A DNA stretch of 64,000 nt, from the IMG/VR virus record IMGVR_UViG_3300046528_000120, positions 39,100-103,099 of that record; one strand, 5' to 3'. A program made the translations under genes and the position numbers. The stretch's first letter is position 1. Every line of letters begins with the position of its first letter. This stretch comes from a virus (Duplodnaviria > Caudoviricetes). This document shows, in pieces, positions 1,098-63,097 of the stretch. Below the pieces are notes generated by a model. That model was not told where the DNA came from and made no database searches. It saw nothing but the letters and a program-made list of their open reading frames with translations.

Positions 1098-1549
1098 TCC
1101 TGCCCCTCTGGAACCAGGACTGCATCGTCACGCTCGACGGCGACGATCAGCAAATCCTCGGTCACGCCCGCGCGCCGTACGTCGACATTAACGGCCGTTA
1201 CCGCATCAACGTGTACTCGTCCCGCTGGGGCTATGAGCGCCTGTTCGCGCCGAGCGAGATCACCCTGTTGCCGGTCACGTTGCCGGGCGGTGTCCTGTAT
1301 GACGCCCACATCGCTTTCAACAAGCGCTACACCCAAGAGCAAGCCGACGCCTTCCTGGCCGCCGAGCAGGAGCCGGTGAAGACCCAGGTACTGCCAGCCG
1401 CACCGAAGTCGCCGATGCAGCGCGCCCGCCCGCTGGTCAAGCCGATGCGGTTCGAGACCGAAAGCGAGGCATTGCAATCAATTGCAAAGACGGTTCAACC
1501 AGTAGCAGCAGTGAGGCGGCGGCGGGTCGTGCGGAAGCCGAATGGTTAG
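1094..1549 (+). CDS. Hypothetical protein with basic C-tail
   Basis: 151-aa ORF coupled to neighbours; ends RRRRVVRKPNG. Confidence 0.7.
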   Translation: MILPLWNQDCIVTLDGDDQQILGHARAPYVDINGRYRINVYSSRWGYERLFAPSEITLLPVTLPGGVLYDAHIAFNKRYTQEQADAFLAAEQEPVKTQVLPAAPKSPMQRARPLVKPMRFETESEALQSIAKTVQPVAAVRRRRVVRKPNG

Positions 1550-2450
1550 CCGGCCGACGCCGGAGCGCCGCTTCGTCCTGTTGCCGGGTCCAGTGCTAAG
1601 CGCGCATGACGGACAGGCGCATATCATCGACGCCTCTCGGCTTGGCATGCTGTACCGTCTCCGGCCGAACGAGTATTACATCCTGAATCCGGTCGATTAC
1701 AGGCGCGCCACCGCCACCCAGGTCGGCGACCACCAGCTAAGGATGAGCGGGTTCCTGCTTCAGGGCATCATGCCGCTGAGGCCGCGCGAGACCGGCGACT
1801 ACGATGCCTACCGCCAATGGGTCGAAACAAACTGGCGCGAGGCGATCCGCCGTGAGATGGAGCAGTTCGACATCGAGATGAGCCGGCCGCCATCGGCCGA
1901 ACAGAGAATCAACAACCAGAGAGAACAACGACGTGAACAAGACGCACACAACTGGCGCGGAGTACGAAACTTCGGCGGCCTCCCCCTCGACGCCCGCATC
2001 CGCATCCCACGACCGCGCGTGCAGCCCAGCGACAACGGCTACGGCTTCCGCTTCCAGCTCGACGCGACCGAGTGGGAACAGCTCGTCAACGACGAAGGCG
2101 GGCAAGGTCTCAGCCGGGAAGAAGTCGCGCGGCGGCTCGACGAAAGTGGGCGCGCCCGCCCAAGCAACCGGCAAGACGAGTGGGAACAGGCCATTGCCTT
2201 TCTACTCGCTGGAGGCGCCGACACCGACCAGTTCACGCCGGGCGTCGTCGAAAGCGTCCGCCGCCTCGACGCTGAAGAACTCAGCGCCCTCGCGCGAAGT
2301 GACAGTGATCAAGGGCAACCGGGCGGGCCTGCGCAGCAAGATGCTGGCAGCGTTCCACCAGGACACGATCAGCGCAGTGCAGAGAGCGCAGCAGATGATC
2401 GCGCAGCACGACTTCTGGCCGGTCGCGCTCCCCGGCGGCTCAAGCGGTAA
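1542..2450 (+). CDS. Hypothetical protein
   Basis: 302-aa ORF; the last ~40 aa overlap the next gene and look like off-frame read-through. Confidence 0.6.
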   Translation: MVSRPTPERRFVLLPGPVLSAHDGQAHIIDASRLGMLYRLRPNEYYILNPVDYRRATATQVGDHQLRMSGFLLQGIMPLRPRETGDYDAYRQWVETNWREAIRREMEQFDIEMSRPPSAEQRINNQREQRREQDAHNWRGVRNFGGLPLDARIRIPRPRVQPSDNGYGFRFQLDATEWEQLVNDEGGQGLSREEVARRLDESGRARPSNRQDEWEQAIAFLLAGGADTDQFTPGVVESVRRLDAEELSALARSDSDQGQPGGPAQQDAGSVPPGHDQRSAESAADDRAARLLAGRAPRRLKR

Positions 2451-3057
2451 ATGGACGGTGTATCAGGCCACGGTGTCGCCGGAGAAAGCCATGATGGACA
2501 GCCTCAAGCACTGCATGGCGGGCTTCCCAGAGATGAGCGTCAGCCCTGGCACCTACACGGTCCTGGCGCGCGCCACCACGCACGGCCCCGAGGTGATGAT
2601 GTCCAACACCCAGTTCGAGTACCGCACCAACATCGAGTTCGTCGGGCGCGCCCACGGCCAAGTCTTGGTGAACGGGCTGGGCATCGGCATGCTGCTCCGG
2701 CCGCTCGCGGCGCGCGCCGAGGTCGAGCGAATCACCGTGGTCGAGAAGGACCGCGACATCTTGCAATTGATTGCACCGCACTACCAGGACTTGATCGACG
2801 CCGGGAAATTGCGCATCATCCATGGCGACGCCTTTAAGTACGTGCCGGATCAATACTACGATTGCATCATGCACGACATCTGGCCGACCACCAGCACCTA
2901 CAACCTGACCGAGATGATCGCGCTCAAGCGCCGCTACCAGCACCTGATGGCGGGCCGCATCATCTCCCAGCATTGCTGGGCTGAAGAAATTTGCTGGCGC
3001 ATGGCCGGCACCGTCACCACCTTGAAGCAACTGAAACGGAGTATGAAGAATGACTGA
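2341..3057 (+). CDS. SAM-dependent methyltransferase / spermidine-synthase-like fold protein
   Basis: VLVNGLGIG (motif I), ITVVEKD, IIHGDAF and YDCIMHDIW. Start uncertain (GTG 2299 or ATG 2341). Confidence 0.7.
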   Translation: MLAAFHQDTISAVQRAQQMIAQHDFWPVALPGGSSGKWTVYQATVSPEKAMMDSLKHCMAGFPEMSVSPGTYTVLARATTHGPEVMMSNTQFEYRTNIEFVGRAHGQVLVNGLGIGMLLRPLAARAEVERITVVEKDRDILQLIAPHYQDLIDAGKLRIIHGDAFKYVPDQYYDCIMHDIWPTTSTYNLTEMIALKRRYQHLMAGRIISQHCWAEEICWRMAGTVTTLKQLKRSMKND

Positions 3058-3427
3058 TCCCTGCTACACCCAGAGCCTGTACCACATGGGCGGCGCTGGC
3101 GGCCTCGAAGTGCGCGCCGGCTCGCGCTGGTCGCCAAGCCAGACGAAGCTGGGCGAGATGATCGCGGACCCGAAAGGGTTCTACGTCAACAATCTGGTCC
3201 TGCGCGAGGCCAACCGCCGCATCCTCGACTTGCACGCCGCCAAGGGGCCGATGGTCGAGCGCATCCGCGAGCTGGAAGAGGAAGTAAAGCGCTTGCAGAA
3301 CATCGTCGCGACGCAGCCGGTCATGGCCCGCGCCGTCCTGGAGCGCCTGAAGGCCGACCCGCACGCTGCCGAGTTGTTCGGCTTCGTCCGCCAGCTCGCC
3401 ACCCTCTTGAGCGTGGAGACCGCGTGA
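3050..3427 (+). CDS. Hypothetical coiled-coil protein
   Basis: 125-aa ORF coupled to neighbours. Confidence 0.65.
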   Translation: MTDPCYTQSLYHMGGAGGLEVRAGSRWSPSQTKLGEMIADPKGFYVNNLVLREANRRILDLHAAKGPMVERIRELEEEVKRLQNIVATQPVMARAVLERLKADPHAAELFGFVRQLATLLSVETA

Positions 3428-3955: not shown

Positions 3956-4324
3956 ATGGCCGACGCCGCATCCGTGAAATTTGCGCAGGCGTATAAAGCA
4001 CTCCGTAAGGCGGCTGACGCCAACCCGGAATATTTCGATCTCGCCCGCGAAGTGTTGCGCCGCCATGATGACGGCTCGGTCTTGCTCATGCACGCATTGA
4101 TGATGGGTCTGCAACAGGCGTACGACGCCGGGCGCGCCGGCAAGCCGGTGCCGCTGCCGACCTTGGTTCAGACCAGCGCCGAATTGAAATCAATTGCAAA
4201 CCGTGGCGACGAAGCAGAAGAGGAACCGGCCGCAGCGCCGGCCCGCCCGCAGCGCGTCTCCCGGACTCCCCAGAAACCCGTAACCCCTACCTTGAAAAGA
4301 ATTGTGCGGAGGGCACCGAAATGA
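3956..4324 (+). CDS. Hypothetical protein with P/R-rich tail
   Basis: RBS AAGGA; ends KRIVRRAPK. Confidence 0.7.
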   Translation: MADAASVKFAQAYKALRKAADANPEYFDLAREVLRRHDDGSVLLMHALMMGLQQAYDAGRAGKPVPLPTLVQTSAELKSIANRGDEAEEEPAAAPARPQRVSRTPQKPVTPTLKRIVRRAPK

Positions 4325-4800: not shown

Positions 4801-5180
4801 ACGGCCGGCTCCCGAACACGCCGGCCGGCTGGCATGCCTTCATCGACGCCTGGGCACAGTACCATAACGTCCAGATGAGCGAGCAGGCGCGCGGCGCGCT
4901 GTGCAACGCCTTCGGCAACCTCACCGAGGCCGAGATGGACGCAATCCAGGCGCACCCGAACTACGAGCGCATCACCGTCGAACTGCCGGCGCACGGCACC
5001 GTCCTGGCGTCTACGGTCACCTACCGCCCGCAGCCAGCCGCCGAGCCGTTGCAATCAACTGCAAAGCCGGTCGCCGCCCGACCGACCAGGACGCCGCCAC
5101 GCACCGCGCCGAGCGTTCCCGCCCCTACGGGAACCCGGCCACCTGCTCGCATCGTCCGTCGCACTGTCCCGATAAAATAA
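4797..5180 (+). CDS. Hypothetical protein with P/R-rich tail
   Basis: AAGGAG RBS, ATG overlapping the upstream stop; ends PPARIVRRTVPIK. Confidence 0.7.
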   Translation: MNGRLPNTPAGWHAFIDAWAQYHNVQMSEQARGALCNAFGNLTEAEMDAIQAHPNYERITVELPAHGTVLASTVTYRPQPAAEPLQSTAKPVAARPTRTPPRTAPSVPAPTGTRPPARIVRRTVPIK

Positions 5181-6119: not shown

Positions 6120-7169
6120 ATGATCGACCCGAGCACCGTCCGGCTCAGTAAGCACTTCTTGCTGTCGGATTTCATGAGCAATCATAGCGTGCAGACGCGC
6201 GGTTACCGGAACCTGTTTCCCGAGCCGCGCGACAGCGGGTACGGCATCAGGATCGCTAACGGCATCGCCCTTTGTGAGAACGCCCTGGAGCCGATCCTGG
6301 CGCAGCACGGCCCGCTCTCCATCAGCTACGGCTACATCTCGCCAGAACTCTCGCGTGAGATCGTGCACTACCAAGACCCCGACAAACCCTCACACCACCG
6401 CTGGGACTTGGGCGCTGCCGCCGACATTTGCGTCCACAGCTGGGTGAACGGAGACCCCGACGATGATACTCTCACAACAGCGCCAATCGCACTGGCACAT
6501 CAACTGGATGGGGAAGGTATCCCGTATTCCCGCCTCATCTCCTACAGTGAATCGCCCTATCTCTGTCTCGCCGTCAGCGCTAAGGAGCTGGCAAACGCGC
6601 GCCCGCGTAAGGCGTTCTACGAGAACCGCTTTGCTGGCCAAAGTAAAACGAAGCCAAGCTATTTCTCTCGTTCGACTGAAGCAGCGCGTGCGCGCTCGTT
6701 GGCTGACCTCCAGGCAGGCGCGCTAACCCACGGATGGCGCGGCGCAGGCTACCCGACCTACCACGGCGGCGGTCGCCGGCAGGCGCAGCATATCCGCATC
6801 TCGAAGTACACCATGCTCTGTGATTGGCTCATCGACTTGCAATCAATTGCAACGGGCGCAAAGAACATTCCGAACCTGAGCGATCAGCGCCTCGTCGACA
6901 CCTTCTATGCAGTCGGCGACGCCTACGATGACATCATCGACCTCTGCAAGGTGCCGCGCATGTCGATCATCGCCGGCTACGTCAGCCCAGCCAGCCCGTA
7001 CTTCACCAGGGCCAATGACTGGCGTAGCGGCAAGGCCACCTTCAGCCTTGTTCCGCCCGAGGGCCTGACGGCAGATGACGTGCGCATGGAGATGCTGTTC
7101 CAGCGAAATGATAAAATAACGGGGTTCGGTAGTGACCCCAACATCCTCGATATTACGGTAGAGTTATGA
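6120..7169 (+). CDS. Peptidase M15 (Hedgehog/DD-peptidase zinc fold) protein with tandem duplicated domain
   Basis: RLSKHFLLSDF...LEPI....ISYGY....SHH.W..GAAADI. A second, degenerate copy begins RISKYTMLCDW...IIAGYVSP. Confidence 0.65.
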   Translation: MIDPSTVRLSKHFLLSDFMSNHSVQTRGYRNLFPEPRDSGYGIRIANGIALCENALEPILAQHGPLSISYGYISPELSREIVHYQDPDKPSHHRWDLGAAADICVHSWVNGDPDDDTLTTAPIALAHQLDGEGIPYSRLISYSESPYLCLAVSAKELANARPRKAFYENRFAGQSKTKPSYFSRSTEAARARSLADLQAGALTHGWRGAGYPTYHGGGRRQAQHIRISKYTMLCDWLIDLQSIATGAKNIPNLSDQRLVDTFYAVGDAYDDIIDLCKVPRMSIIAGYVSPASPYFTRANDWRSGKATFSLVPPEGLTADDVRMEMLFQRNDKITGFGSDPNILDITVEL

Positions 7170-9338: not shown

Positions 9339-9382
9339 ATGCTGGGAGGGATCACAGGCCTGAAATTGCAAGTGATTGCAAA

Positions 9383-10033: not shown

Positions 10034-10719
10034 TTGCTTTGACAGGATTAAAGGGAGTAGGCAAGGATGAAGCGGTGAACCATCTGGTATCGCTCGGCTT
10101 CACCAAACTCGCGTTCGGGGACGCGATTTACAAGGAACTTGCAATCAATTTCAAGGTGCCGGAAGAATTCCTGCGCATGCGCGAGGTCAAGGAGACGCCG
10201 CACCCCCGGCTCGCCTTGGCCTACTGCCAAGACCATGAATTCGTGCGCTATATTGTCGCCAGCGCCATGACACTGCCGGCCGGCTGCGACCACGGCATCC
10301 GCGCGCTGTCACGCGACGAGCTGACCAAACCGCGCACCAGTACCTGGCTCACCCAGCAATGGGCTACCCAGTACCGCCGCCGGCACTTCAGCGACGACTA
10401 CTGGACCCGCATCGTGGTCGACCAGATCAGGGCGCTGCCGCGCGGCACCAACGTCGTCTTGAGCGACTTGCGCCACTTCCCGGTTGAAATGGCAGCGTTC
10501 GACGCTTACCGCGACACCCACACGCACCGCGCCGGTAGCCTGACCATCGCGCCGGCCATGGGCATCCTGGAGCTGACCCGCGACGGCAGCATCAATACCG
10601 GGCATGACTCGGATCGCGGCCTGCCGCGCGATCTCATCGACAAGACGTACGTCAACAACGGCACCCTGACCCAGCTCTACGCTGCCCTCGAACTGTTCAT
10701 CACCCTGGAGATCAAGTAA
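10027..10719 (+). CDS. Deoxynucleoside monophosphate kinase
   Basis: N-terminal P-loop GLKGVGKD, then F.D.IY, R....D.W and VVLSDLR: phage dNMP kinase pattern. Confidence 0.8.
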   Translation: MLVALTGLKGVGKDEAVNHLVSLGFTKLAFGDAIYKELAINFKVPEEFLRMREVKETPHPRLALAYCQDHEFVRYIVASAMTLPAGCDHGIRALSRDELTKPRTSTWLTQQWATQYRRRHFSDDYWTRIVVDQIRALPRGTNVVLSDLRHFPVEMAAFDAYRDTHTHRAGSLTIAPAMGILELTRDGSINTGHDSDRGLPRDLIDKTYVNNGTLTQLYAALELFITLEIK

Positions 10720-11399: not shown

Positions 11400-11422
11400 C
11401 CTGGATTGCAATTGATTGCAAC

Positions 11423-11861: not shown

Positions 11862-13519
11862 CAACTAGCAATCGGCCGACGCGTATTCGCCGGGCCGCAC
11901 AACAGCGTGGAGTAGCCGTGCAACAGCAGCTCGCCGCGCATACGACCGTCATCCAGGTCGAGCGTGCCAGCGCCAGTGCCAGCCGCCAGATCGAGTACCT
12001 GGATGAATTCCAGCTCGGCGGCGGCTTCGGCCAACTCATCATTCCGCCACCGTACAACGTCGAGGGCCTGTTCCGGTATATCTCCGAATCGAACATGCTC
12101 AAGCAGTGCATCCGCTCGTACGTGGTCAACACGGCCGGCACCGGCTGGGAAGTGGTCCCGCTCAACAAGAAGGTTACGGTAGACGAGGACGAGCGCGACG
12201 AGCTGGAAGCCATCTGCGATCTGGCCAACTCCGAAGAGAGCCTGTCTACCGTGGTCAAGAAGGCCATCGCTCACCGCGAAGCAGTCGGCTTCGGCTTCAT
12301 CGAAGTCATCCGTGACATCAGCGGCCGTCCGACCCTGCTGCGCCACGCATCCTCGCTCCACATGCGCCTCGGCCACAAGAGCCAGACCGAAGTCCTGGTC
12401 AAGTTCGATCTGCCGCGCGGCGCCCGCTCCGCTACCGTGAAGGAGTTCCGCAAGTTCCGCCGCTTCTTGCAATTGATTGCAGGCCGCATGCGCTACTTCA
12501 AGGAGTTCGGCGACCCGCGCGACCTCAACGCCGATACCGGCCTGTTCGAGGATGAGCAGGGCTACCAGCCGGGCAACTCGGCGACCGAGATCATCCACCT
12601 GAAGCGCGACTCCAACGAGCCGTATGGCGAACCGCAGTGGATCAACCAACTGCCGAACATCATCGGTTCGCGCGAGGCCGAAGAAGTGAACATGCGCTAC
12701 TTCGAGGACAACACGGTGCCGGCCGGTATGCTGACGGTAGCCGGTGGCCGCCTGACGGCGCAGTCGCACCAGAACCTGACCAACCTCCTTGCGGGCGGCA
12801 TCGGCAACAAGAACCAGTCGAAGATCGTCCTGATCGAAGCGGTCGGTGAGCAGGATAGCCTGGACGCCAAGGGCACCCCGATCCAGATGAAGGTCGAGCG
12901 TCTGGCCGACCAGCGCCCCAGCGACGGCCTGTTCAAAGATTACGACGAAGCCAATCAGGCCAAGGTCCGTTCCAGCTTCCGCCTGCCGTCGGTCGCGGTC
13001 GGCATGGCGAACGAGCACAACTTCGCCACCGCCAACGTCGCCATGTTTGCTGCCGAGTCGCAGGTATTCGCCCCCGAGCGCAACGAGACCGATGAGCTGC
13101 TGAACAACACCCTGGTACGGTCTCGCGCCGGCATGCGAATGCGCACGGTGAAGCTGGCCAGCCGCACGCCGCCGATCACCTCGCCCGAAGGCCAGATCAA
13201 GACCATGACCGCGCTGAACGTGATGGGCGCCCTGACCCCGCGTAAGGCCCAGAAGCTGGCCAACACCCTGCTGCAAATCGAGATCGAGGAATACCCGAAG
13301 AAGGGCGAGGCAGACTACGAGGACTGGATGGACAAGCCGATGGCGCTGAACATGAGCAAAGGCGCTGCCGCCGACGAAGGCGTCGACGCCGGCAACCCAC
13401 CCCCGGCCGATGGTAGCGCGCCTGCAACGCACGCTGGGCAGTCCGTGAAAGACCCTGCGACCAAGGCGCTCGAAGCCAGCGGCAATATCAACACTCAACC
13501 GAAGCATGGGACGGAATAA
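11858..13519 (+). CDS. Portal protein (PBSX-like)
   Basis: IPPPY...G.G.IEVIRD..G...EIIH.K....YG.P.W...N..YF.DN.VP; lies immediately before the protease and capsid genes. Confidence 0.85.
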   Translation: MTTSNRPTRIRRAAQQRGVAVQQQLAAHTTVIQVERASASASRQIEYLDEFQLGGGFGQLIIPPPYNVEGLFRYISESNMLKQCIRSYVVNTAGTGWEVVPLNKKVTVDEDERDELEAICDLANSEESLSTVVKKAIAHREAVGFGFIEVIRDISGRPTLLRHASSLHMRLGHKSQTEVLVKFDLPRGARSATVKEFRKFRRFLQLIAGRMRYFKEFGDPRDLNADTGLFEDEQGYQPGNSATEIIHLKRDSNEPYGEPQWINQLPNIIGSREAEEVNMRYFEDNTVPAGMLTVAGGRLTAQSHQNLTNLLAGGIGNKNQSKIVLIEAVGEQDSLDAKGTPIQMKVERLADQRPSDGLFKDYDEANQAKVRSSFRLPSVAVGMANEHNFATANVAMFAAESQVFAPERNETDELLNNTLVRSRAGMRMRTVKLASRTPPITSPEGQIKTMTALNVMGALTPRKAQKLANTLLQIEIEEYPKKGEADYEDWMDKPMALNMSKGAAADEGVDAGNPPPADGSAPATHAGQSVKDPATKALEASGNINTQPKHGTE

Positions 13520-15556: not shown

Positions 15557-15623
15557 CACAGCCGTACCCCAGATTTATTGCAATCAATTTCAATAGCAGC
15601 AAACCCTTAACACTGGAGAGTAA

Positions 15624-16635: not shown

Positions 16636-16673
16636 CACATTGCAATCAATTTCAAAATAACTTAGGAAGCATC

Positions 16674-18183: not shown

Positions 18184-18671
18184 TGCTCAACCAAGACCCA
18201 GATCAGATCACGCGCATGGAAGATGACCTGCGCGACAAGATTCAAGTTGCAATCAATTTCAAACCCGAACTGAATGCCGGCGTGTACGGCGTCTTCAGCA
18301 TCGACGACCTCGAATCCAAGATGCAAGACGATCTCGGCGGTGGCATCGGTGTCGGCGTCCAGTTCGTCTACACCCAGGCGGCCGACCTCCAGGCCCGCCC
18401 CGGCGCACAGAATGCCCGCTACCTGCAATTCATGTTCCAGGTCATCCTCGCGGTGCCGTGTGGCATGGAGGCGGTCGAACGCGGGCTGGCAACCAAGCTG
18501 CTCGGCGTCACGCGCCAAGCCATCTTCGGCGAACCACTGAAGGACGACAAGGTGAACCGGGCATGGGACTTCGTGCGTGAGCAAGCAGAACCTAGTGCGT
18601 CAACCGCGACGATGCTGTACTATTCGCAACTCTGGCAAGTTGCCCTGCCGCAAGTAGCGCAGCGCGCCTAA
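18180..18671 (+). CDS. Tail terminator / neck protein
   Basis: Synteny immediately before the tail tube gene. Confidence 0.55.
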   Translation: MMLNQDPDQITRMEDDLRDKIQVAINFKPELNAGVYGVFSIDDLESKMQDDLGGGIGVGVQFVYTQAADLQARPGAQNARYLQFMFQVILAVPCGMEAVERGLATKLLGVTRQAIFGEPLKDDKVNRAWDFVREQAEPSASTATMLYYSQLWQVALPQVAQRA

Positions 18672-19539: not shown

Positions 19540-19563
19540 ATTGCAATTGATTTCAATAAGGTA

Positions 19564-43482: not shown

Positions 43483-43833
43483 ATGATCTACAAAACCCTG
43501 AGCCAAAAAGTCATGCGCGAGAGCATGCGCGTCGTCGTCATGGTCCTGATCGGCATGGCACTGATCCACTTCAGCCCGATCCTGGCGCTGGGCGTCGGCG
43601 TCCCCGCGTTCTCGCCGTGGGGCCTGTTCGTCGGCGGCATGATGCTGGCTGCTGCAATCTCTCACGTCATGCGCCGGCTCTTGTTCCCACGCCTCGACTT
43701 GCAAGCGATTGCAATCCGCGCGGTCGGAGAACGGCATGAAGACGGCAACTTGCCCGCCGCCATCGTGTTCGCCTCGATCTGCGCCATCCTCGGCTTGCTG
43801 TTGTATTTGAACGCATCGCTATTGCGGATGTAA
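43483..43833 (+). CDS. Holin-like 3-TM protein
   Basis: GGAG RBS; three TM helices; upstream of the endolysin. Confidence 0.6.
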   Translation: MIYKTLSQKVMRESMRVVVMVLIGMALIHFSPILALGVGVPAFSPWGLFVGGMMLAAAISHVMRRLLFPRLDLQAIAIRAVGERHEDGNLPAAIVFASICAILGLLLYLNASLLRM

Positions 43834-45719: not shown

Positions 45720-45776
45720 TTGACATAATAGCGAAACAGGCGCATACTTCAATCGTCGGTTTGCAATTGATCGCAA
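45720..45776 (+). promoter_or_regulatory. Sigma70 promoter with a motif copy just downstream of the predicted start site
   Basis: TTGACA(45720)-17 bp-CATACT(45743); TTGCAATTGATCGCAA at 45761-45776. Confidence 0.75.
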
Positions 45777-48712: not shown

Positions 48713-48741
48713 TCGTTGCAATCAATTTCAAAGGAACTGAC

Positions 48742-49805: not shown

Positions 49806-49833
49806 TTTTTGCAATCAATTGCAAGGAGCAGTC

Positions 49834-51372: not shown

Positions 51373-52746
51373 ATGCTGAAGACCGTAGACATTGCTGAGT
51401 ACGAACGTACCCTGCGCTCGAAGCTGCGCGGAGGGATGGATTTGCAGCGTCATTACTCCATGTCGATGCACCAACTTGCTGCGCGCTGGGCTAAGAGACT
51501 CGCACCGCACCAAACCCTCATTCTGATATTCGTTCTCGACCGCACCGTATACCACGGCAAGCTGAGCGAGACCATCGCGTTCGACCAGTTCCTGGATGGC
51601 ATGGTTCTAAATGACCGCGACGAGCGCGTCTTCAACGGACTCAATATGAGCAAGAACACGCTCGTACTGCACCTGAAGGAATTGGTAAATGGCGACTTCT
51701 TGCACGCATGCGCATGCCTCGCGGCGGACGGCAAGACTGAGATTCGCCCACGCCTGTTTGCAATCAATTGCAAGAAGCTCTTCAACCTGGACATCGCCGA
51801 CGAGGAAAACCCCATGATTCTGCGCGAGCCGAAAGCCAAGAAGGTAGTAGAAGTTGCCGAAGATGACCAGGATAATCTGGCCCCATCTGCACGTAAGTTG
51901 TTGAAAACACCGAAGAAATTGGCTGTAGAGGCTCCCAAAAACACCCCCCCAAATTTGGGGGGCATATATACTGATAACAGGATAACTAAAGTTATCCATT
52001 TCGGCGATGCGGCGCACGCCGAGCATCCTAAGAAGGTCAGCATTGCCGATGCGCTGGAAAACCTCCAAGCTACTCGTGCCGCATTAAAGGCGCAGCGCCC
52101 AGCCAGTCGTCCTACTCGCACCACCCGCAGCGCTGCCGCGCAGAGCAACAATCCCTACAGCCGCGTAAGCGTGCAGGGCAAGCTGGACGAGTTGATGCAG
52201 CAGTACCACCCGGCGCTGCCACGCGTCATCGTTACCGACAAAGCCCTGGGCGTGATGCGCAAGCGCATGGCCGACGCCGGCATCGAGCGCGACGACTTCC
52301 TCGACTGGGCCATCAAGATGTGGATGACCACGTCCCAGGCCCACGCACGCGGCGCACGCCGCAACATAGGTGAGGCCCGCCGCAGCTACGCACCACTGCC
52401 AGCCGCCCCGGACTTCAATACCCTGGCCTACCGCCTGCCCTACTTCCTCGCGGCCTACCGCAGCTACGTGCAAGCCGAGCGCATCGGCGCAGCGACCAAC
52501 CGCGAAGAGATGCTGGAGCGCAAAGTCGAGAAGCTGGAGCGCAAGGTCCAGTCGGCCCAGGACGAAGTGCGCAGCGCCAGGGAACGCGAACGCGCCGTGC
52601 GCCGCCGCCCACGAGTTACCGAAGTACCCGAAGAAGCACCACCCGTCCGACCGGCACGGATCGCCCGCCGCGCCCCTGTTACCACCACCCTGCTCGACGA
52701 CGATCTGCCGTTGGCATGGGATGAATACGACCAGAAGAAGGCCTAA
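51373..52746 (+). CDS. Putative replication initiator (N-terminal wHTH, lambda O-like organisation)
   Basis: LIFVLDRT..G......QF..G....GL.MSKNTL...LKEL; AT-rich internal linker; followed by loader and helicase genes. Confidence 0.6.
   Translation: MLKTVDIAEYERTLRSKLRGGMDLQRHYSMSMHQLAARWAKRLAPHQTLILIFVLDRTVYHGKLSETIAFDQFLDGMVLNDRDERVFNGLNMSKNTLVLHLKELVNGDFLHACACLAADGKTEIRPRLFAINCKKLFNLDIADEENPMILREPKAKKVVEVAEDDQDNLAPSARKLLKTPKKLAVEAPKNTPPNLGGIYTDNRITKVIHFGDAAHAEHPKKVSIADALENLQATRAALKAQRPASRPTRTTRSAAAQSNNPYSRVSVQGKLDELMQQYHPALPRVIVTDKALGVMRKRMADAGIERDDFLDWAIKMWMTTSQAHARGARRNIGEARRSYAPLPAAPDFNTLAYRLPYFLAAYRSYVQAERIGAATNREEMLERKVEKLERKVQSAQDEVRSARERERAVRRRPRVTEVPEEAPPVRPARIARRAPVTTTLLDDDLPLAWDEYDQKKA
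51944..51999. other. Candidate replication origin elements
   Basis: CCCCCCAAATTTGGGGGG palindrome, ATATATA, GGATAACT-AA-AGTTATCC hairpin and a DnaA-box-like TTATCCATT. Confidence 0.45.
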
Positions 52747-52748: not shown

Positions 52749-53330
52749 ATGACTGTCTCCACCACGCAGCAAAACGTGCGCAAATTGCGCGAAAGCCATA
52801 TCCCGCCGTACACCTTCAGGACCAACTTCGACCAGGAGCAGCTAGGGTCGCTGAAGGCCCGTATCACCAGCGCCGAATTCCGTGACGCCATGGCGAACGG
52901 CGCGCCGGTAAATCTGTTCATCTATGCCGGCGAAGATCACCGCGCCGCCCTGCAACGCTCGGTGCGCGCCGCCGCTCTGGTCGCCAAGGGCCTGTGCCTC
53001 CAGAACATGCAGGTGATCCACACCCACATGGCCGGTTTCCTGCGCGAGCAGCGCATGGCCGAGATGGAGCGCACCGACAGCAGCGTCAACCCGGTACTGT
53101 CCCACCTCGGCAAGGGCTACATCGCGATCAGCGATTTCCTGGAGTACGACAACATCACCGAGCTGTACGGGCACCACTCGTTGCAATTGATTGCAGACTA
53201 CCTGATCGAACACGTCGAGGCTGGCGGTGGCCTGATCCTGGGCGCGGGCAACATCGACCCGCTGGACGTGCTCCAGTTCGGCGTGGCATTCCAGAACCTC
53301 ATGGGCGTCTTCGAGACGTACCGCGTATGA
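52749..53330 (+). CDS. DnaC-like helicase loader with degenerate P-loop
   Basis: Lies between initiator and helicase; S.IP..........F; NLFIY where Walker A is expected; Y.AISDF. Confidence 0.45.
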   Translation: MTVSTTQQNVRKLRESHIPPYTFRTNFDQEQLGSLKARITSAEFRDAMANGAPVNLFIYAGEDHRAALQRSVRAAALVAKGLCLQNMQVIHTHMAGFLREQRMAEMERTDSSVNPVLSHLGKGYIAISDFLEYDNITELYGHHSLQLIADYLIEHVEAGGGLILGAGNIDPLDVLQFGVAFQNLMGVFETYRV

Positions 53331-54828: not shown

Positions 54829-55153
54829 GAAATTGCAATCAATTGCAGAACACGGCGATAACCTCGCCTGGGATAAGTTCTCCGAGATCGTCAAGGAGAA
54901 GATGGCGGCAAGCCGCGCTAAAGGTCGCGGTGGATGGGATGATCCTGCACAATGCACGGTCGAGCAATTAGCGTATCTGCTAGTAGAGCATGTAGCGAAG
55001 GGCGACCCGCGAGACATCGCCATCCTGTCCATGATGGTGCACCAACGCGGAGGCACCGCTATTGACGTTTATGAAGCGTTTGCCGTGCACGCGGCGCGGG
55101 CCAAGCCCTACGCACCAACGCCGGAAGAGCTGGAGAAGGAGTTTCAGCAATGA
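54821..55153 (+). CDS. Hypothetical phage protein
   Basis: K.K.A.SR.KGRGGW...C....L...L..HV.KGDP.D.A, a pattern I recognise from small phage proteins. Confidence 0.7.
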   Translation: MSEKLQSIAEHGDNLAWDKFSEIVKEKMAASRAKGRGGWDDPAQCTVEQLAYLLVEHVAKGDPRDIAILSMMVHQRGGTAIDVYEAFAVHAARAKPYAPTPEELEKEFQQ

Positions 55154-55410
55154 CCGACAAAATGCAATCAATTGCAACGCAACAGTTCGACGCATACGGC
55201 GACATGCAAGTGCCGTTTGACGTTGCAACTTGGTGCCGCGCACACAAGTTCAACACAACAGCGGTCGACATCTTGCGCACACTCAAAGCCCGCAATGCGC
55301 TGAGCGGGCAGATCGAACAATTGGAGCGCCAGCGCGACGAGCAGGAAGAACGTCTGCGCATCCTGACACAAGAGGCCCGTCAGAAGATGGAGGTGGCGCA
55401 TGCCGTTTGA
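55150..55410 (+). CDS. Small coiled-coil hypothetical protein
   Basis: AAGGAG RBS; coupled to neighbours. Confidence 0.6.
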   Translation: MTDKMQSIATQQFDAYGDMQVPFDVATWCRAHKFNTTAVDILRTLKARNALSGQIEQLERQRDEQEERLRILTQEARQKMEVAHAV

Positions 55411-58285
55411 TGCCGCCAAGTGCGAAGGCTGTCTGCTCGACGGCCAGTTCCGCCCGATGGAGCCACGCGGCGGTGAGAACGCGCGCTTCATGATCGTCAC
55501 CGAAGTTCCGAGCGGCGCAGGTCACAAGGAAGGCCGCTTGCTACCGCCCGCTGCCATGCGCATTTTCGGCGCGACCATGGAGCAAGCCGGCTTCAACCGC
55601 GACGACTTCCTGTTCTACCCCTCGTGCCGTTGCCCGATCCCGGAGAACGATTACACCAACCGCGAGAAGAGCACGATTATCAAGCACTGCCGCGCGCACA
55701 TGCACGATGCCATCGCCGATGCGCAGCCGGAAGTGATCGTTCCACTCGGCAAAGACCCGACCTCGCAAGTGTTCGGCCGCAGCGTTAAGATCACCCACGT
55801 CCGGGGCCTCATGAACGAGATCGCCGATGTGCCGGCGCCGGTCTTCCCGATCATCACGCCGTCCCAGGTCGTGGCCTACCCGCAGAACGGCCCACTGTTT
55901 GAAGCTGACGTGCAATCGTTTGCAAGGTTCGTAGAATTCAACTACGACGCGGCCAGCGCCTCGGTGGAACACGGCGACTACCAGATCGTGGACGACCTCC
56001 AGTTCCTGATCGACCGCGACGAAGAACTGCTCTCGTTCGACATGGAGACCACCGGGATTCGCTGGTACAAGCAGGGCGTCGACGTGCGCACCTACAACCC
56101 TGAGCTGCACAAGGGCAATGCTGCGTTCGACCCGCGCTACCAGATTCTGACTTTCCAGTTCAGCACCCGCCCCGGCGAAGGCTTCATGCTGGTATGGGAC
56201 CATCCCGAGAACCCGATCCCGGAAGAGCGCAAGCCGAAGCTGCGCAACCAGCTCCGCAAGTTGCTGTGCAAGGCTGACCGTCTCGTCGGCGGCCACAACG
56301 ACAAGTTCGATAACGTCGGCCTCTGGATGACCGAGGGCATCCGCTACCGCATTTGCTGGGATACCCTCCTGGCCGTCGCCATGCTGGACGAGAACGCGCC
56401 GGAGAAGAACCTGGACGTGATGACCAAGATTCACGTCCCGGAGATGGCCGGCTATGCCGACGAGTTCAACCGCACCGTGGACAAGAGCCGCATGTGGGAA
56501 GTGCCCCTCGACATGATGCGTGGCTACGGCTGCGGCGATACGGACGCGGCGCTGCGCCTATGGCTCGCGCTCGAACCGAAGCTCATGGCCGATGATCGCC
56601 AGTGGTCGAACTACTGCAACGTCGGTATCCCCGGCCTCAACGCCTTGTCCGGCATGGAGACGCGCGGCATGTACGTCGACGTGGAGAACGAGCTGCCGCA
56701 GTTCCAGGCCTACATGGAGGATTCGGTCGGCACCGCCTACACCCGCCTGCTCGGCCAGATTCCGCGCACCATCAAGCGCGAGCACGTCGATGCCCTGAAG
56801 GGCGACGTAGAGAAAGCGCTGTCGTTCGGCCGCAAGGACTTCCTGCGCGATGTCCTGTTCTACCACCCGGACGGCTTCAAGCTGAAACCGCGCGTCTTCA
56901 CCAAGTCCACGCGACACCTGAACGACAAGAACCTGTGGATTCCGTCGACCAGCTCGAAAGACCACCTGCCCTACTTCTTCGAGGAATGCCCGTTCACCTT
57001 CGAGCTGGCCGAGTACGTCAAGGATGAAAGGCTGCTCAGCACGAACATCATCTCGTTCGAGAAGAAATACGTGGTCGGCGGCAAGGTGCGCCCGGTCTAC
57101 AACCTGCACATTGCCGTCACCGGTCGTACCGCGTCGCAAGACCCGAACGGCCAGAACTACCCGAAGCGCTCGGACAAAGCGAAGATGTATCGCAGGATGT
57201 TCAACGCCCCCGAGGGCTACTACGTCTGCGAGCTGGACTTGTCCCAGGCCGAGCTGCGCATCGCGGCAACCATGGCGCGTGACCCGACCATGCTTCAGAT
57301 TTACCGAGAGGCCGGCGACATCCACACGGCGACCGCCCTGGTTGTCCTCAGCATGACCATGGAGCAGTTCCGGCAGTTGCCCAAGGCCGAGCAGAAGCTG
57401 GCACGTACCAAGGCAAAATCGGTCAACTTCGGGTTCCTGTACGGCATGGGCTGGCGCAACTTCATCGTGTTCGCGAAGACCCAATACAACGTGGAGTTCA
57501 CCGAGCAGGAAGCGAAGAACATCCGCGCCGGCTTCTTCAAGAAGTACAGCCGCCTGACGGCATGGCACGAACGTATGCGCAACTTCGCAAAGGAGCACAA
57601 ATTCGTGCGCTCCCTCAGCGGCCGTATCCGTCACCTGCCGATGGTCGACAGTGCCGAAGAGTACATCCAGCAAGAGGCGATGCGTCAAGCGATCAACTCG
57701 CCAGTGCAGGAATTCGGCTCGTCGCTGGGCGTCATGGCACTCGGACGCATGGAAGAGGTGATCGACCCGGAATACCTGCAAATTGTGGGCTTCATCCACG
57801 ATGCTATCGTCGTCTACATCAAGAAGGAATACCTGGACTGGGGCCTCAAGACGGTCAAGGGCTTCATGGAGTCGAACCCGATTGGCGAATGGTTCGGCAG
57901 CGAGATGCTGTGCCCGATTGTGGCCGACGCCGGCTTCGGCACCAACCTCGGCGAGATTCACGAGCTGGAGGGCTTCAGCCTGGATCAGCAGTTCGACTAC
58001 GGCTCGCTGCGCGACAAGGAAGGCAACCTGTTGATCGAGGTTCCGCCGCAGCAGACCCCGCCGAACAATGGCCGCCTGACGCGCTCGCCGTTCACGCTCG
58101 ACACCGACCTGGAGCCAGAAGAGATTCGCCCGGCTACTCGCCGCGTCATGCGTAGTCTCAGCCGTGCACCGGACCCGGCCCCGCGCCGCCCGACCCGCAT
58201 CGTCCGCACGCCGCCCGCCCAGGCCGCACCGGTCGAGCAGGCACCGGCCACAGTGAAGCGTTATACTAGGACACCCGTACGATAA
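55400..58285 (+). CDS. polA: DNA polymerase family A with N-terminal UDG family-4-like domain and 3'-5' exonuclease
   Basis: Exonuclease motifs FDMETTG, HNDKFD and YGCGD; polymerase motifs DLSQAELR, AKSVNFGFLYG and IHDA; N-terminal CxxC...CRCP...C UDG-like region. Confidence 0.93.
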   Translation: MPFDAAKCEGCLLDGQFRPMEPRGGENARFMIVTEVPSGAGHKEGRLLPPAAMRIFGATMEQAGFNRDDFLFYPSCRCPIPENDYTNREKSTIIKHCRAHMHDAIADAQPEVIVPLGKDPTSQVFGRSVKITHVRGLMNEIADVPAPVFPIITPSQVVAYPQNGPLFEADVQSFARFVEFNYDAASASVEHGDYQIVDDLQFLIDRDEELLSFDMETTGIRWYKQGVDVRTYNPELHKGNAAFDPRYQILTFQFSTRPGEGFMLVWDHPENPIPEERKPKLRNQLRKLLCKADRLVGGHNDKFDNVGLWMTEGIRYRICWDTLLAVAMLDENAPEKNLDVMTKIHVPEMAGYADEFNRTVDKSRMWEVPLDMMRGYGCGDTDAALRLWLALEPKLMADDRQWSNYCNVGIPGLNALSGMETRGMYVDVENELPQFQAYMEDSVGTAYTRLLGQIPRTIKREHVDALKGDVEKALSFGRKDFLRDVLFYHPDGFKLKPRVFTKSTRHLNDKNLWIPSTSSKDHLPYFFEECPFTFELAEYVKDERLLSTNIISFEKKYVVGGKVRPVYNLHIAVTGRTASQDPNGQNYPKRSDKAKMYRRMFNAPEGYYVCELDLSQAELRIAATMARDPTMLQIYREAGDIHTATALVVLSMTMEQFRQLPKAEQKLARTKAKSVNFGFLYGMGWRNFIVFAKTQYNVEFTEQEAKNIRAGFFKKYSRLTAWHERMRNFAKEHKFVRSLSGRIRHLPMVDSAEEYIQQEAMRQAINSPVQEFGSSLGVMALGRMEEVIDPEYLQIVGFIHDAIVVYIKKEYLDWGLKTVKGFMESNPIGEWFGSEMLCPIVADAGFGTNLGEIHELEGFSLDQQFDYGSLRDKEGNLLIEVPPQQTPPNNGRLTRSPFTLDTDLEPEEIRPATRRVMRSLSRAPDPAPRRPTRIVRTPPAQAAPVEQAPATVKRYTRTPVR

Positions 58286-58303: not shown

Positions 58304-58855
58304 ATGCCAACACCCCCGCGCATCGTGCGGGGTGCTCCACGCACCCCCGTAACAGCCCCGGCCCGCATCGTTCGCACCGCCGCCCGTACCGCTCGCGTCA
58401 CTTCGGCCACTGCCGCTGTCGACCAAGCCGCGCAGCGCGCACAGGATATCGCCGACATCGAAGAATCGTTGCAATCAATTGCAGACCTGAAGATTCAGAT
58501 GGCCGAGCTTCAGGACAAAGTCACCGAGCACGAGGCTTCGATCCTGGCCAAGATGAAGCGCAGCAAGATCGCCGACATTATCCACGCCGGCCTGCAAGCG
58601 ATCCTCGCGCCGACCTTCAGCAACGAGAAGAAGGAGATCGACCCGCTGAAGCTGTTCAACAAGAAGGGGATCAACCGCAGCGACTTCTTCAAGATGGTCA
58701 AGGTGCAGATCGGCGAGGTCGGCAAATATCTCGCAGAGAACGAGATTCGTGAGCTGGCCAAGATTACGCCGCCGCAGAAGACCGGCGAAGCGCTGACGAT
58801 CAAGCCGGTGAAGGCCGCTGCCAGCAAGACCGTGATCAGGAACAAGACGAGATGA
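58304..58855 (+). CDS. Hypothetical basic coiled-coil protein
   Basis: AAGGAG RBS; two PxRIVR motifs at the N-terminus. Confidence 0.75.
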   Translation: MPTPPRIVRGAPRTPVTAPARIVRTAARTARVTSATAAVDQAAQRAQDIADIEESLQSIADLKIQMAELQDKVTEHEASILAKMKRSKIADIIHAGLQAILAPTFSNEKKEIDPLKLFNKKGINRSDFFKMVKVQIGEVGKYLAENEIRELAKITPPQKTGEALTIKPVKAAASKTVIRNKTR

Positions 58856-61065: not shown

Positions 61066-61217
61066 CCGACCTCAAACTGAAATGGTCCTACCCCGCGATG
61101 ACCAAGCCTTGCTCCATCGAGAGCTGCACCAATCAGGCGGCGGCCAACAGCCACGACCTGTGCGAGCACCACATGGGTGAGTTCAAGGCTTTCCTGCAAC
61201 AGAAGTACAACCGTTGA
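61062..61217 (+). CDS. Small Zn-finger-like protein not in the ORF track
   Basis: MTDLKLKWSYPAMTKPCSIESC...LCEHH; fills the gap and overlaps the upstream stop. Confidence 0.5.
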   Translation: MTDLKLKWSYPAMTKPCSIESCTNQAAANSHDLCEHHMGEFKAFLQQKYNR

Positions 61218-61230
61218 AATTGATTGCAAC

Positions 61231-61518: not shown

Positions 61519-62593
61519 ACAGATCAAAGATGTGCTAGTCGAAGTCGGCATGCGGCGGGGCGACCTCAAGACCATTCACGGCTGGGTCTCGACCAAATGC
61601 CCCCTCGCCGCCTGGAAGCACCAGAAGCGGCGCGATAGTGCGCCGTCCTCCGGGGTCTCGATTCGCGACGAGCCAATCTTCAACTGCTTTACCTGCGGCA
61701 CGAAGAAGCCGCTCTTCGCCATGGTCGAGGAATACGCCACCTATACCGGTGACGACTTCAGCGATCTGGTCGACGAGTTGCGCGAGAGCGCCTACCTGGG
61801 GCCGACTGCGCTGCCGAGCTGGGACCGTCTCAAGGAGCAGCCGCCCGAGGATGAGCTGATGCCGCTCCACGAAGGCCTGTACATGGACCTGTATGAGCCG
61901 GCCGCTGGTCACCCGTACCTTGCCGAGCGCGGGATCAGCGACGCCACAGCCGAGAAGCTGGAGCTGCGCTTCGACCCTGAAGACCGGGTAGACCGCGAGC
62001 ATGGCATCTTCGGCGTCGGTCGCATCCTCTTCCCGGTGCGCGGCCCGAACGGCGCCCTGTACGGCTTCACCGGGCGCGATGTCACCGGGCAGTCGAAGGT
62101 CAAGGCACGCGACTACGCCGGCCTGAAGAAAGCCCTGTGCGTCCTGGGCAGTCACCTACTCGCCAGCGAGAACCCGCCGCATGTCGAGATCGTCGAGGGC
62201 CTGTTCGACTATGCCAACATGGTCGAGCAGGGCTACTACCCTGGCGCGGTCATGCACTCGTCGCTGACCGAGGCCCAGGCCAACATCTTCCGCGACATCG
62301 GCAAGCCGACATACATGCTGTATGACGATGATGACGCGGGAGAGAAGGGCGTGTTGGAGGCCAGCCGCGCGCTGATCGACTACACTCCCATCATGCAAGT
62401 GCGCTACCCCGAGATATGGATCGAGAACCCGAATGAAGACGACGGTGGGCATTACGTGAAAGACCCCGGCGAGCTTCTGAGGGAGGATATTGAATGGATG
62501 CTCCAAGATGCACGCATCATTACCCCGCGTGACATACGCAATATGGAGTACAGAGTCAAGCAGAAGCAGCGCGACTTGACAGACAACCGCTGA
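61508..62593 (+). CDS. DNA primase (Zn-binding + TOPRIM)
   Basis: CP...H...CF.C; YL..RGI; RI.FP; GFTGR; VEGLFD; YDDD.AG; KDPG. Confidence 0.9.
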   Translation: MDAEQIKDVLVEVGMRRGDLKTIHGWVSTKCPLAAWKHQKRRDSAPSSGVSIRDEPIFNCFTCGTKKPLFAMVEEYATYTGDDFSDLVDELRESAYLGPTALPSWDRLKEQPPEDELMPLHEGLYMDLYEPAAGHPYLAERGISDATAEKLELRFDPEDRVDREHGIFGVGRILFPVRGPNGALYGFTGRDVTGQSKVKARDYAGLKKALCVLGSHLLASENPPHVEIVEGLFDYANMVEQGYYPGAVMHSSLTEAQANIFRDIGKPTYMLYDDDDAGEKGVLEASRALIDYTPIMQVRYPEIWIENPNEDDGGHYVKDPGELLREDIEWMLQDARIITPRDIRNMEYRVKQKQRDLTDNR

Positions 62594-62605
62594 AGTAACG
62601 ATAAT
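62576..62605 (+). promoter_or_regulatory. Sigma70-type promoter
   Basis: TTGACA-18 bp-GATAAT. Confidence 0.6.
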
Positions 62606-62614
62606 GGGATTGCG

Positions 62615-63097
62615 ATGACTACAGATCATCAAGACCGCAGATTATCGACAGAAGTAGATTGGCTCGGTGGCAAACTCCGGCCGCTCCGCGAAGGGAAAGC
62701 AGCGATGTTCTCCCTGATTCAAGCAGAGCGGCCCAGCAAGGTGAAGCGGGTCGTGCCGCCGCAACCCAAGCTAATCACCATCGTTCCCGGCTCCGTGTTC
62801 GACTTGCCGCCTACGATTGTCCAGGTCTCGGTATTTAACAACGGATGTTGTTTTGTTGAAATTGATCGCAACGTGGTATCCAAGCTAGTTCTGGCGGGGA
62901 TACCGGCAAGACTCGCCAAAGTCTTGCTTGCCACGCTGCGCTCCACACTCATAGAGGAAAACCATGGCAACTGCACCACGTCGAGTACCCGCAAGAAGCG
63001 CCCCAGCAGCGGCGCAGCCGGCTTCCAGCCGCGCACCCGCCCGAACACCAGCACGGTCACCCGCTCGCAGTACACCAGCACCGACCGCAGCGTATAG
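62615..63097 (+). CDS. Hypothetical protein, 3' part overlapping the SSB gene
   Basis: ORF after the promoter; atypical codons. Confidence 0.4.
   Translation: MTTDHQDRRLSTEVDWLGGKLRPLREGKAAMFSLIQAERPSKVKRVVPPQPKLITIVPGSVFDLPPTIVQVSVFNNGCCFVEIDRNVVSKLVLAGIPARLAKVLLATLRSTLIEENHGNCTTSSTRKKRPSSGAAGFQPRTRPNTSTVTRSQYTSTDRSV

Follow-up and report, generated by a model that had tools for sequence, protein, structure and literature searches.

A dispersed array of 16-bp palindromic sites in a siphovirus genome and a candidate phage-encoded reader

The site array and its setting

The DNA analyzed here is a 64,000-bp window covering bases 39100-103099 of the 103,099-bp IMG/VR record IMGVR_UViG_3300046528_000120, the genome of a tailed phage (Caudoviricetes) that we refer to as G000. 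The record is complete, with 127-bp terminal repeats and 61% G+C, and nearly all of its genes lie on one strand. Within genes and at the junctions between them recurs a 16-bp site with the consensus TTG(C/A)AAT-CA/TG-ATT(G/T)CAA, a 7+2+7 dyad with no spacer. Selection acts directly on the DNA of these sites, strongly enough to alter protein sequences, and the array is not peculiar to G000 but belongs to a large and widespread lineage of 80-110-kb siphoviruses.

Exact matches to the strict pattern TTGMAATNNATTKCAA number 21 in the window, whereas 100 shuffles that preserved dinucleotides gave an expectation of 0.00; a looser criterion of at most three mismatches to TTGCAATCAATTGCAA yields exactly 41 window copies, from 1472 to 62871. 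An original prediction made from the window sequence had put the number at about 41, in agreement with this count, and the shuffles predict none; it had placed about 26 copies in open reading frames (ORFs), where we count roughly 25-28 of the 41. The full genome contains 73 copies, 37 of them strict, and a control pattern read backwards has 0 matches across it. Arm, center, and placement statistics are based on the 68 good copies of G000.

The in-ORF copies are read as LQSIA/LQLIA or as AINCK/AINFK peptides, in two of the three frames, and no in-ORF copies were seen in the third frame among the G000 copies. The codons so imposed are minor ones in G000 (TTG, 11% of Leu; CAA, 28% of Gln; TCA, 5% of Ser; ATT, 16% of Ile; GCA, 13% of Ala), and codon usage and the frame count thus confirm the predicted use of rare codons in more than one frame. 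When codons were shuffled synonymously within each gene (30 shuffles, leaving all proteins and per-gene codon usage unchanged), 0 to 6 copies (mean of approximately 2.5) remained in coding sequences, compared with the 37 observed. Further, homologous codons of a gene encoding a ParB_N-methyltransferase carry TGCAATCAATTGCA in G000 (AINC), TGCAAACGCTTGCA in Pseudomonas phage SM1 (ANAC), and TGCACTCGATTGCA in the relative G004 (ALDC), and a codon-level alignment of the gene at window positions 14126-15556 shows the site recurring in the relatives G001 and G002 and in SM1 (also in G003), in shifted frames and as each phage's own variant. As homologous codons carry phage-specific variants of the site, the protein sequence yields to the DNA word: homologous positions keep the site, each in its phage's own dialect, and the amino acids change. 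The codon shuffle and these rewritten codons together bear out the earlier proposal that selection acts on the DNA and not on the protein.

Since the hexamer TTGCAA is itself palindromic, a perfect site can also be read as a direct repeat. In the G000 copies, however, the TTGAAA variant is confined to the left arm and TTTCAA to the right arm, a pattern of inverted symmetry that decides between the two, and relatives with the A/T form on both arms carry TTGAAA...TTTCAA. Only 1 of the 68 G000 copies is varied on both arms; the variant otherwise occupies one arm only, so that the central G-C pair of any stem is broken. In RNA folding, the perfect site reaches −4.2 kcal/mol (z = −1.2) and the common variants 0 kcal/mol, unfolded; as the site is at best this stable and has no compensatory arm pairs, we rejected an identity as an RNA hairpin or intrinsic terminator. 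The center is CA or TG in 66 of 68 copies (45 CA and 21 TG) and CG in only 2, and the preference for CA on the coding strand agrees with the A-over-T and C-over-G skew of that strand. The symmetry predicted for a dimeric protein is thus supported at the sequence level, the common variants breaking the would-be stem.

The copies are strongly concentrated at gene junctions. Intergenic DNA, together with DNA no more than 30 nt from a gene start, makes up 24% of the genome and holds 44 of the 68 copies (65%; P = 1e-12). In the annotated genome of SM1, 17 of 32 copies are intergenic, compared with 8% of the genome being noncoding, and 9 begin at or on a stop codon. The usual layouts are stop-site-ribosome-binding site-ATG, a site abutting the ATG without a ribosome-binding site, a site in the first ten codons, and a site beside an intrinsic terminator. 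There is no fixed distance to sigma70-like promoters, as sites occur before, on, or after promoters and terminators, and a few copies are operator-like. The coefficient of variation of the gaps in G000 is 0.67, versus 0.98 for random placement (P below 2e-4), and when the junction copies are kept in place, those in ORFs close the remaining gaps more effectively than randomly placed positions in coding DNA do (P = 0.001). The seven relatives tested behave likewise: their coefficients range from 0.48 to 0.66 versus 0.92 to 0.97 at random, each below its random value. Of the regular genome-wide recurrence originally described, the coverage and even spacing stand; a uniform spread does not, given the concentration at junctions.

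The window copies were located by approximate match to TTGCAATCAATTGCAA, with strand given as "." for all of them. At gene junctions, TTGCAAGTGATTGCAA (9366..9381) ends 1 nt 5' of the ATG at 9383, and the copy at 61214..61229 likewise lies 1 nt 5' of an ATG, with no ribosome-binding site. Intergenic copies lie between the ORF end at 15556 and the ORF start at 15624 (15578..15593), 18 nt 5' of the ATG of ORF 16674-17048 (16640..16655), 3 nt past a stop and 13 nt 5' of the ATG of the gene for a 1,748-aa tail protein (29229..29244), between DUF1257 and DUF2997 genes (48716..48731), and immediately 5' of a ribosome-binding site and ATG (49809..49824). One copy, 27757..27772, constitutes the first codons of ORF 27757-28491, which has a TTG start and a ribosome-binding site upstream, and two occupy codons 5 to 9 of their ORFs: 54833..54848 in ORF 54821-55153 (MSEKLQSIA) and 55162..55177 in ORF 55150-55410 (MTDKMQSIA). 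As a separate observation, genes starting 1 to 5 nt after a site with no recognizable ribosome-binding site follow the copies at window positions 9366 and 61214 and at genome positions 13263, 16241, 30254, and 84860, which suggests re-initiation coupling or an unusual initiation context.

Other copies border transcription signals. The intergenic copy at 11406..11421 lies 6 nt past a stop and is followed by a GC hairpin and T-run terminator and a sigma70-like promoter; that at 34505..34520 abuts the stop of ORF 29258-34504 and is also followed by a terminator and a sigma70-like promoter. A terminator is flanked by the intergenic copies at 38809..38824, 2 nt past a stop and immediately 5' of its hairpin, and at 38849..38864, immediately 3' of it, and another intergenic copy (19541..19556) lies just past a terminator T-run downstream of ORF 18696-19490. 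A weak intergenic copy with three mismatches (42407..42422) is located just upstream of a sigma70-like promoter. One operator-like example, 45761..45776, is found at the start of an AAA ATPase operon, 13 nt past a sigma70-like −10 box; a site is found upstream of this ATPase gene in 6 of 9 relatives.

Among the copies inside ORFs, TTGCAATCAATTGCAA at 1472..1487 reads LQSIA in ORF 1094-1549, TTGCAATTGATTGCAC at 2761..2776 reads LQLIA in ORF 1933-3057, TTGAAATCAATTGCAA at 4184..4199 is in the LKSIA frame in ORF 3956-4324, and TTGCAATCAACTGCAA at 5049..5064, with one mismatch, lies in ORF 4725-5180. The AINFK frame is used by TTGCAATCAATTTCAA at 10139..10154 (ORF 10027-10719) and by the copy at 18247..18262 (ORF 18180-18671), and ORF 19672-20286 holds both an LQSIA copy (19921..19936) and, in another frame, ATGCAATTGATTTCAA (19976..19991). 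Several copies have counterparts in relatives: for that at 6837..6852 (ORF 6120-7169), G003 carries a site at the same codons; that at 14465..14480 is the copy in ORF 14126-15556 discussed above; that at 51758..51773 (ORF 51373-52746) has G003's own variant at the same codons; and for that at 58469..58484 (ORF 58304-58855), G001 and G002 retain the site at these codons. Further copies lie at 25978..25993 (ORF 25738-26325), 39617..39632 (ORF 39365-39811), and 44822..44837 (ORF 44660-45403) and, with two mismatches, at 37894..37909 (ORF 37647-38306), 43699..43714 (ORF 43264-43833), and 62856..62871 (ORF 62615-63097); a weak copy with three mismatches (32676..32691) lies in the tail protein gene 29258-34504. 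As originally listed, the portal gene (11600-13519) contains a copy (12467..12482), and the tape-measure gene (20529-25745) contains two (21663..21678 and 22344..22359), but the polymerase gene holds only a weak three-mismatch copy (55910..55925, in the UDG-PolA gene) that is not kept in relatives. A DnaB-like helicase gene contains a copy as well (53181..53196).

The site family in related phages

Nucleotide searches of the phage collection in near and distant modes gave no matches, and relatives were reached via proteins. The nearest named relatives are the Pseudomonas phages SM1 and PaMx31 (Samunavirus), in which the UDG-PolA protein (a uracil-DNA glycosylase-DNA polymerase A fusion) is 54% identical. 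The commonest 12- to 16-mers of SM1 are GTGCAA(A/G)CG(C/T)TTGCAC, in which the outer half-sites are as in G000 and the 4-bp core is different. The TGMAA-N4-TTKCA family is the top repeated word in 8 of 10 whole or near-whole relative genomes; of the remaining two, G009 carries the word TTGCWAACGTTWGCAA, and in G006 the TGMAA-N4-TTKCA sites form only a weak set. G006 (IMGVR_UViG_3300001390_000008, 40% G+C) carries another repeat, TGTAATTAAATTCTAATAT, in 5 to 7 copies, along with G-rich words such as GGCGGGGCA (8 copies).

The site family is also present in ten metagenomic loci of 9 to 21 kb and in five cultured phages, namely, Stenotrophomonas phage DLP5 (TGCAATCAATTGCA), Rhizobium phage L338C (TGCAACWWGTTGCA), Agrobacterium phage JP1 (TTGCAAACGTTTGCAA), Rhodobacter phage RcDurkin (TGCAATCGATTGCA), and Vibrio phage SIO-2. 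All relatives examined have a form of the site; each lineage has its own variant, and specificity shifts across the family. In the literature we found no paper describing the family, the motif strings were not found as a phage element, and the papers on the RcF cluster and on DLP3 make no mention of the repeat.

A candidate reader and the possible role of the array

Among the proteins shared with SM1, we picked out P0002, a 455-aa protein encoded at genome positions 6794-8161, approximately 32 kb before the window start and directly after a RuvC-like gene in every relative examined (gp50, YP_009594461.1, in SM1). Its two ends are histone-H1-like tails rich in Lys, Ala, and Pro; it also has a central helical domain that is conserved in all relatives and a ribbon-helix-helix-like C-terminal module. 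An AlphaFold2 model of residues 205-415, built with 39 homologues, has a predicted local distance difference test (pLDDT) score of 92.6. The top Foldseek matches of the model in the Protein Data Bank (PDB) are the DNA-binding domains of Noc and ParB, with weak E-values of 0.4 to 2. In a second structural alignment, against 48,161 PDB chains, the domain aligns with a ParB-parS DNA-binding domain over 96 residues (Z = 7.5; root-mean-square deviation, 2.9), followed by Spo0J (Z = 6.8), KorB (6.3 and 6.0), SopB (5.3), and VirB (4.9), and ribbon-helix-helix proteins align to residues 151-209 of the 211-residue domain model with Z of approximately 5. These Z values are moderate, but the list is family consistent and suggestive of a ParB/KorB/Noc-like fold. 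Structural neighbors of P0002 in the Atlas are DUF3102 proteins, some of which are fused to ParB_N.

P0002 is also predicted to form a homodimer, with a score of 0.82 versus 0.00 for the best of three controls, agreement between runs in at least 93% of contacts, and a partner pLDDT of at least 76. The mark applied here was reached by 20 of 30 proteins solved as one-chain pairs and by 1 of 23 solved as single chains, and P0002 may have passed it partly through its likeness to solved ParB-family dimers. The dimeric binding protein originally postulated thus has a plausible counterpart in P0002, a predicted symmetric dimer with a modeled ParB-like fold.

Homologues of P0002 occur in every motif-bearing genome in which that genomic segment is present, including JP1 and RcDurkin (hhalign probability of 99.7%); the G003 contig lacks the whole primase-terminase segment and hence P0002. 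A related-locus search with the P0002 alignment returned SM1 only. In 17 of 21 genomes, the gene for the P0002 homologue is preceded, at 80 to 135 bp, by a site in that genome's own variant, whereas the background chance is 0.10 to 0.18 per window and other core genes reach at most 0.67 and mostly 0 to 0.2. Pfam and PHROGs scans found no other regulator among 80 further proteins, and among approximately 110 proteins scanned there was no classical repressor and no ParA-type family, although distant forms are possible; KorA was not found.

Beyond phages, a scan for exact matches to the motif across 185,579 species genomes gave mostly scattered single matches at about chance level, with clusters only in mobile islands of Paraburkholderia. 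In P. fungorum (G011:C1, ~1,446,900-1,464,600; L225:11946-L226:9601), an integrase-bounded island of approximately 17 kb encodes a resolvase, an SLT-domain protein, and a distant P0002-family protein and contains nine TTGCAAT(CA/TG)ATTGCAA copies in 16 kb, compared with one other strict match in the 10.4-Mb genome. The P0002-family protein was found by a local hidden Markov model (HMM) search (E = 3.5e-8; hhalign probability, 93.5%) and has a site 183 bp upstream of its gene; tblastn of the G000 ORFs, P0002 included, gave no match to the island, and a separate profile search with P0002 in three Paraburkholderia genomes returned nothing. The island could be a satellite or a relative using the same reader, and its presence hints that Paraburkholderia may be a host of G000-type phages. 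P. elongata has an island with 10 motif copies in 18 kb (G012:C163, ~47-65 kb; L227-L228), which is duplicated on C293, and a third island (L229, C113) with a CG-centered variant. The P. elongata islands carry defense-like genes for a NOV_C/DUF3883-like 1,441-aa protein, an ADP-ribosylglycohydrolase, DUF4145 and Sel1-repeat proteins, and a transposase.

That the sites form an array bound by a phage-encoded protein is probable. We hypothesize, with somewhat better than even confidence in the whole, that the 16-bp palindromes are docking sites on double-stranded DNA for a phage-encoded dimeric protein, with P0002 as their most likely reader; that P0002 itself is the reader is slightly more likely than not. 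One P0002 dimer would read both TTGMAAT half-sites, its basic tails would hold neighboring DNA, and sites kept each 1.5 to 3 kb would make the whole genome one protein-marked array. The most likely consequence would be genome-wide transcription control, in which sites between a stop and the next ribosome-binding site, or just past promoters, could act as operators or road-blocks resembling KorB operators or mycobacteriophage stoperators, including autoregulation of the reader's own gene. Such an array could be used for temporal control or in the plasmid-like carrier state that DLP5 and DLP3 are known to adopt. These two phages are temperate and are maintained as phagemids (PMC5834331, PMC7326821), a lifestyle in which approximately 95 kb of co-directional genes must be silenced.

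Silencing as the main role falls short of an even chance. The junction- and promoter-proximal placement, the site before the reader's gene, and the lack of another repressor in our scans point to control of the KorB or stoperator type, and a coating, compaction, or protection array is favored by the even spacing, the conservation of copies within ORFs, and the H1-like tails. The two readings are compatible, as regularly spaced road-blocks would do both.

Several observations weigh against P0002 as a silencing reader. The even spacing and the conservation of in-ORF copies would be expected of a structural or protective array no less than of a transcriptional one, and G000 lacks recognized lysogeny genes. 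The fold scores are moderate (Z below 8 and Foldseek E-values of 0.4 to 2), and at such values helical domains can match by arrangement alone. P0002 being encoded by a core gene, there is no negative control for its association with the motif, and no P0002-like gene was found within the 40 kb examined around two motif-rich P. elongata islands. The putative recognition helix (YRKAMN in G000) does not track the motif in a simple way, as QH and MN helices share one site, and the JP1, RcDurkin, and Paraburkholderia proteins have very different helices and yet the TGCAA core is kept. Finally, family scans found the ParB_N domain (the N-terminal CTPase) only in the neighboring 271-aa and 514-aa proteins and not in P0002, and ParB-like sliding or spreading cannot therefore be assumed.

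Alternative readings, known systems, and neighboring genes

It is unlikely, in our estimate, that the sites are instead read by another phage protein, the best candidate being HTH97, a 97-aa MerR/Xis-like protein (genome 2087-2380, between helicase and RecA genes), or by a protein of unrecognized fold. HTH97 joins an HTH_17/MerR_1/Exc-like N terminus to a helical tail, has homologues in most relatives, stands where DLP5 and SIO-2 have a "transcriptional regulator" annotation, and has a recognition region that differs by motif class (TFRRW with GTGCAA-type sites). However, all of its Pfam matches are below curated cutoffs; tblastn searches of JP1, DLP5, and SIO-2 were negative, and that of RcDurkin gave nothing above noise; and its gene has no conserved upstream site. 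In profile searches of the motif-sharing P. fungorum island, made with P0002 and HTH97 only, P0002 matched and HTH97 did not. Xis-type helix-turn-helix proteins usually bind direct repeats as monomers. When helix-motif covariation was examined for both P0002 and HTH97, only the association of G at motif position 1 with Thr held, and it is confounded by phylogeny.

The genes that follow P0002 at genome positions 8186-13261 (L007) encode a ParB_N-only protein (271 aa, with a GHTR box and no helix-turn-helix), a ParB_N + Methyltransf_23 protein (514 aa), a CmoA-like S-adenosylmethionine (SAM) methyltransferase (244 aa), a TerS-like helix-turn-helix protein, and a 656-aa MJ0330_N-type protein that is probably TerL; this conserved set is a candidate DNA-modification module. 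A small gene like that for ribosome modulation factor (RMF, PF04957; best E = 6e-8) lies in the same region at genome ~10764-10922 (L007), with counterparts in relatives at L091:14144-14299 and L097:13472-13627, and an Acb2/Tad1-hairpin-like protein (PF24729) is also present. One speculative and rather unlikely extension of the docking hypothesis is a "split ParB" system, in which P0002 would be a histone-tailed nucleator at even sites, recruiting, in part of the lineage, ParB_N proteins without a helix-turn-helix, one of them fused to a methyltransferase beside a CmoA-like enzyme; a so-far-unknown DNA modification or protective coat would then be written along the whole phage genome, and the Paraburkholderia islands would be satellites or kin on the same reader.

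The same genes bear on a second rival, which is quite unlikely: that the sites are targets of a DNA transaction, whether modification by the ParB_N, ParB_N-methyltransferase, and CmoA-like set, nicks, or Chi-like marks halting a host nuclease from either direction. The three genes follow P0002 in close relatives as well as in G000, even spacing and a strand-symmetric site suit a mark met by something traveling along DNA, and the terminal repeats and size of approximately 100 kb recall T5-like phages, which have nicked, ~100-kb genomes with terminal repeats. Yet the motif is present in G006 and G008, for which tblastn with the G000 ParB_N proteins was negative, and JP1, RcDurkin, and DLP5 carry the motif with annotations that name no ParB beside the P0002 homologue, two ParB-domain proteins being reported elsewhere in DLP5. 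Further, the strong junction and promoter bias is not required for such a mark.

A host transcription factor titrated or borrowed by the phage, for example, of the LacI/GalR type, is improbable as the reader. LacI-family operators follow the pattern TGNAANCGNTTNCA, which the SM1, G005, and JP1 variants (TGCAAACGCTTGCA and TGCAAACGTTTGCA) fit letter for letter; the only paper that we found containing the 12-mer GCAAACGCTTGC concerns the LacI-family regulator MalR, and the TGCAA core is kept across alpha- and gammaproteobacterial phages. In contrast, site variants differ between closely related phages, and the matches in the species-genome scan cluster in mobile islands, not in host regulons. 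G000 has CA/TG centers, and many relatives have CA/TG or AT centers, not the CG used by LacI hinge helices, and Pfam and PHROGs scans found no LacI-type domain in phage proteins. The resemblance to LacI/GalR operators is therefore probably one of format only.

Action of the site in RNA (as a hairpin in processing, stability, or translation at cistron starts) or as a promoter for a phage-specific transcription factor is highly improbable: many copies do lie 1 to 30 nt 5' of start codons or in the first 10 codons, some abutted genes lack a ribosome-binding site, and intergenic copies favor the CA orientation (30 versus 11 TG), but the folding energies and lack of compensatory changes noted above, the conserved copies deep in long genes, the variable distance to sigma70-like promoters, the strand skew that matches the CA bias, and the finding of no phage RNA polymerase or sigma factor in Pfam and PHROGs scans all speak against it. 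Of other known elements considered, a sigma54 promoter was rejected, for which the spacing falls 1 bp short and the GG is missing, as were FNR/CRP boxes and IHF sites, for which the spacing or sequence is wrong.

We return to the proposed P0002-read array for comparison with described systems. The stoperators of Cluster A mycobacteriophages are 13-bp asymmetric sites in one orientation relative to transcription that are read by a monomeric two-domain immunity repressor (L5 gp71, Bxb1 gp69; PMC6550527, PMC9283540). In lysogens, that repressor blocks elongation. The G000 array resembles them in its tens of dispersed copies genome-wide (theirs at approximately one per 1.5 to 2 kb), many at gene junctions, in its slight phage-specific variants, and in the copy upstream of the reader's (here, the candidate's) gene. 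It differs in that its site is a 16-bp palindrome present in both orientations, with the bias explained by strand skew, the candidate reader is predicted to be dimeric and of ParB-type fold, the spacing is significantly even, and the hosts are Proteobacteria.

In its 13- to 16-bp palindrome without a spacer, the site also resembles those of KorB/OB (RK2, 13-bp palindromes; PMC11790492), ParB-parS, Noc-NBS, SopB-sopC, and VirB, and like those of KorB on RK2, where the role is control, its copies are dispersed across the whole replicon. The P0002 domain model aligns, with moderate scores, to the DNA-binding domains of ParB, Spo0J, KorB, SopB, and VirB. Unlike those readers, P0002 lacks an N-terminal CTPase and adds a ribbon-helix-helix-like module and H1-like tails, in only part of the lineage is it adjoined by separate ParB_N-only proteins, neither ParA nor KorA was found, and there are approximately 70 sites versus 1 to 12.

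The original prediction did not recognize the consensus as a described phage element, which holds for this motif but not for dispersed dyad repeats of its kind. Cluster O mycobacteriophages have a 17-bp dyad repeat, TGTTCGGNNNCCGAACA, in more than 30 copies with a 7+7 inverted repeat, for which reader and function were left unassigned (PMC4351075). The two arrays are alike in having more than 30 dispersed siphovirus copies, some of them between genes, others just within the ends of ORFs, and others deep inside them, and in a 7-bp inverted repeat with a short variable center that is biased with transcription direction; the sequence and the phage lineage are unrelated. Beyond that report, the array is traced here across alpha- and gammaproteobacterial phages, among which its specificity changes, and a candidate for its reader is put forward.

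Dispersed palindromic repeats are known in a few phage groups, and their readers and purpose are mostly unexplained. Notable here are the breadth of the family, the explicit evidence for DNA-level selection, and a concrete candidate reader from a previously uncharacterized protein family. The lineage includes easily grown phages of Pseudomonas aeruginosa, Stenotrophomonas, Vibrio, Rhizobium, Agrobacterium, and Rhodobacter, and with a named candidate and cultured phages, the role of such arrays is directly testable in SM1 or DLP5. If the reader were a global silencer, this would explain DLP5-like phagemid persistence without a recognizable repressor and would bear on suitability for phage therapy.

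Two further gene arrangements in the window are of note in their own right. The operon at 45761-48936, preceded by a near-consensus sigma70-like promoter, encodes an AAA+ ATPase (589 aa), a 205-aa protein, DUF1257, and DUF2997, and the AAA+ ATPase/DUF1257/DUF2997 operon is kept in all relatives. At 55400-58285, DNA polymerase A carries an N-terminal domain of the uracil-DNA-glycosylase superfamily, a fusion that is conserved lineage-wide, and two relatives (L093) have intein or Hint domains within their polymerase and helicase genes.

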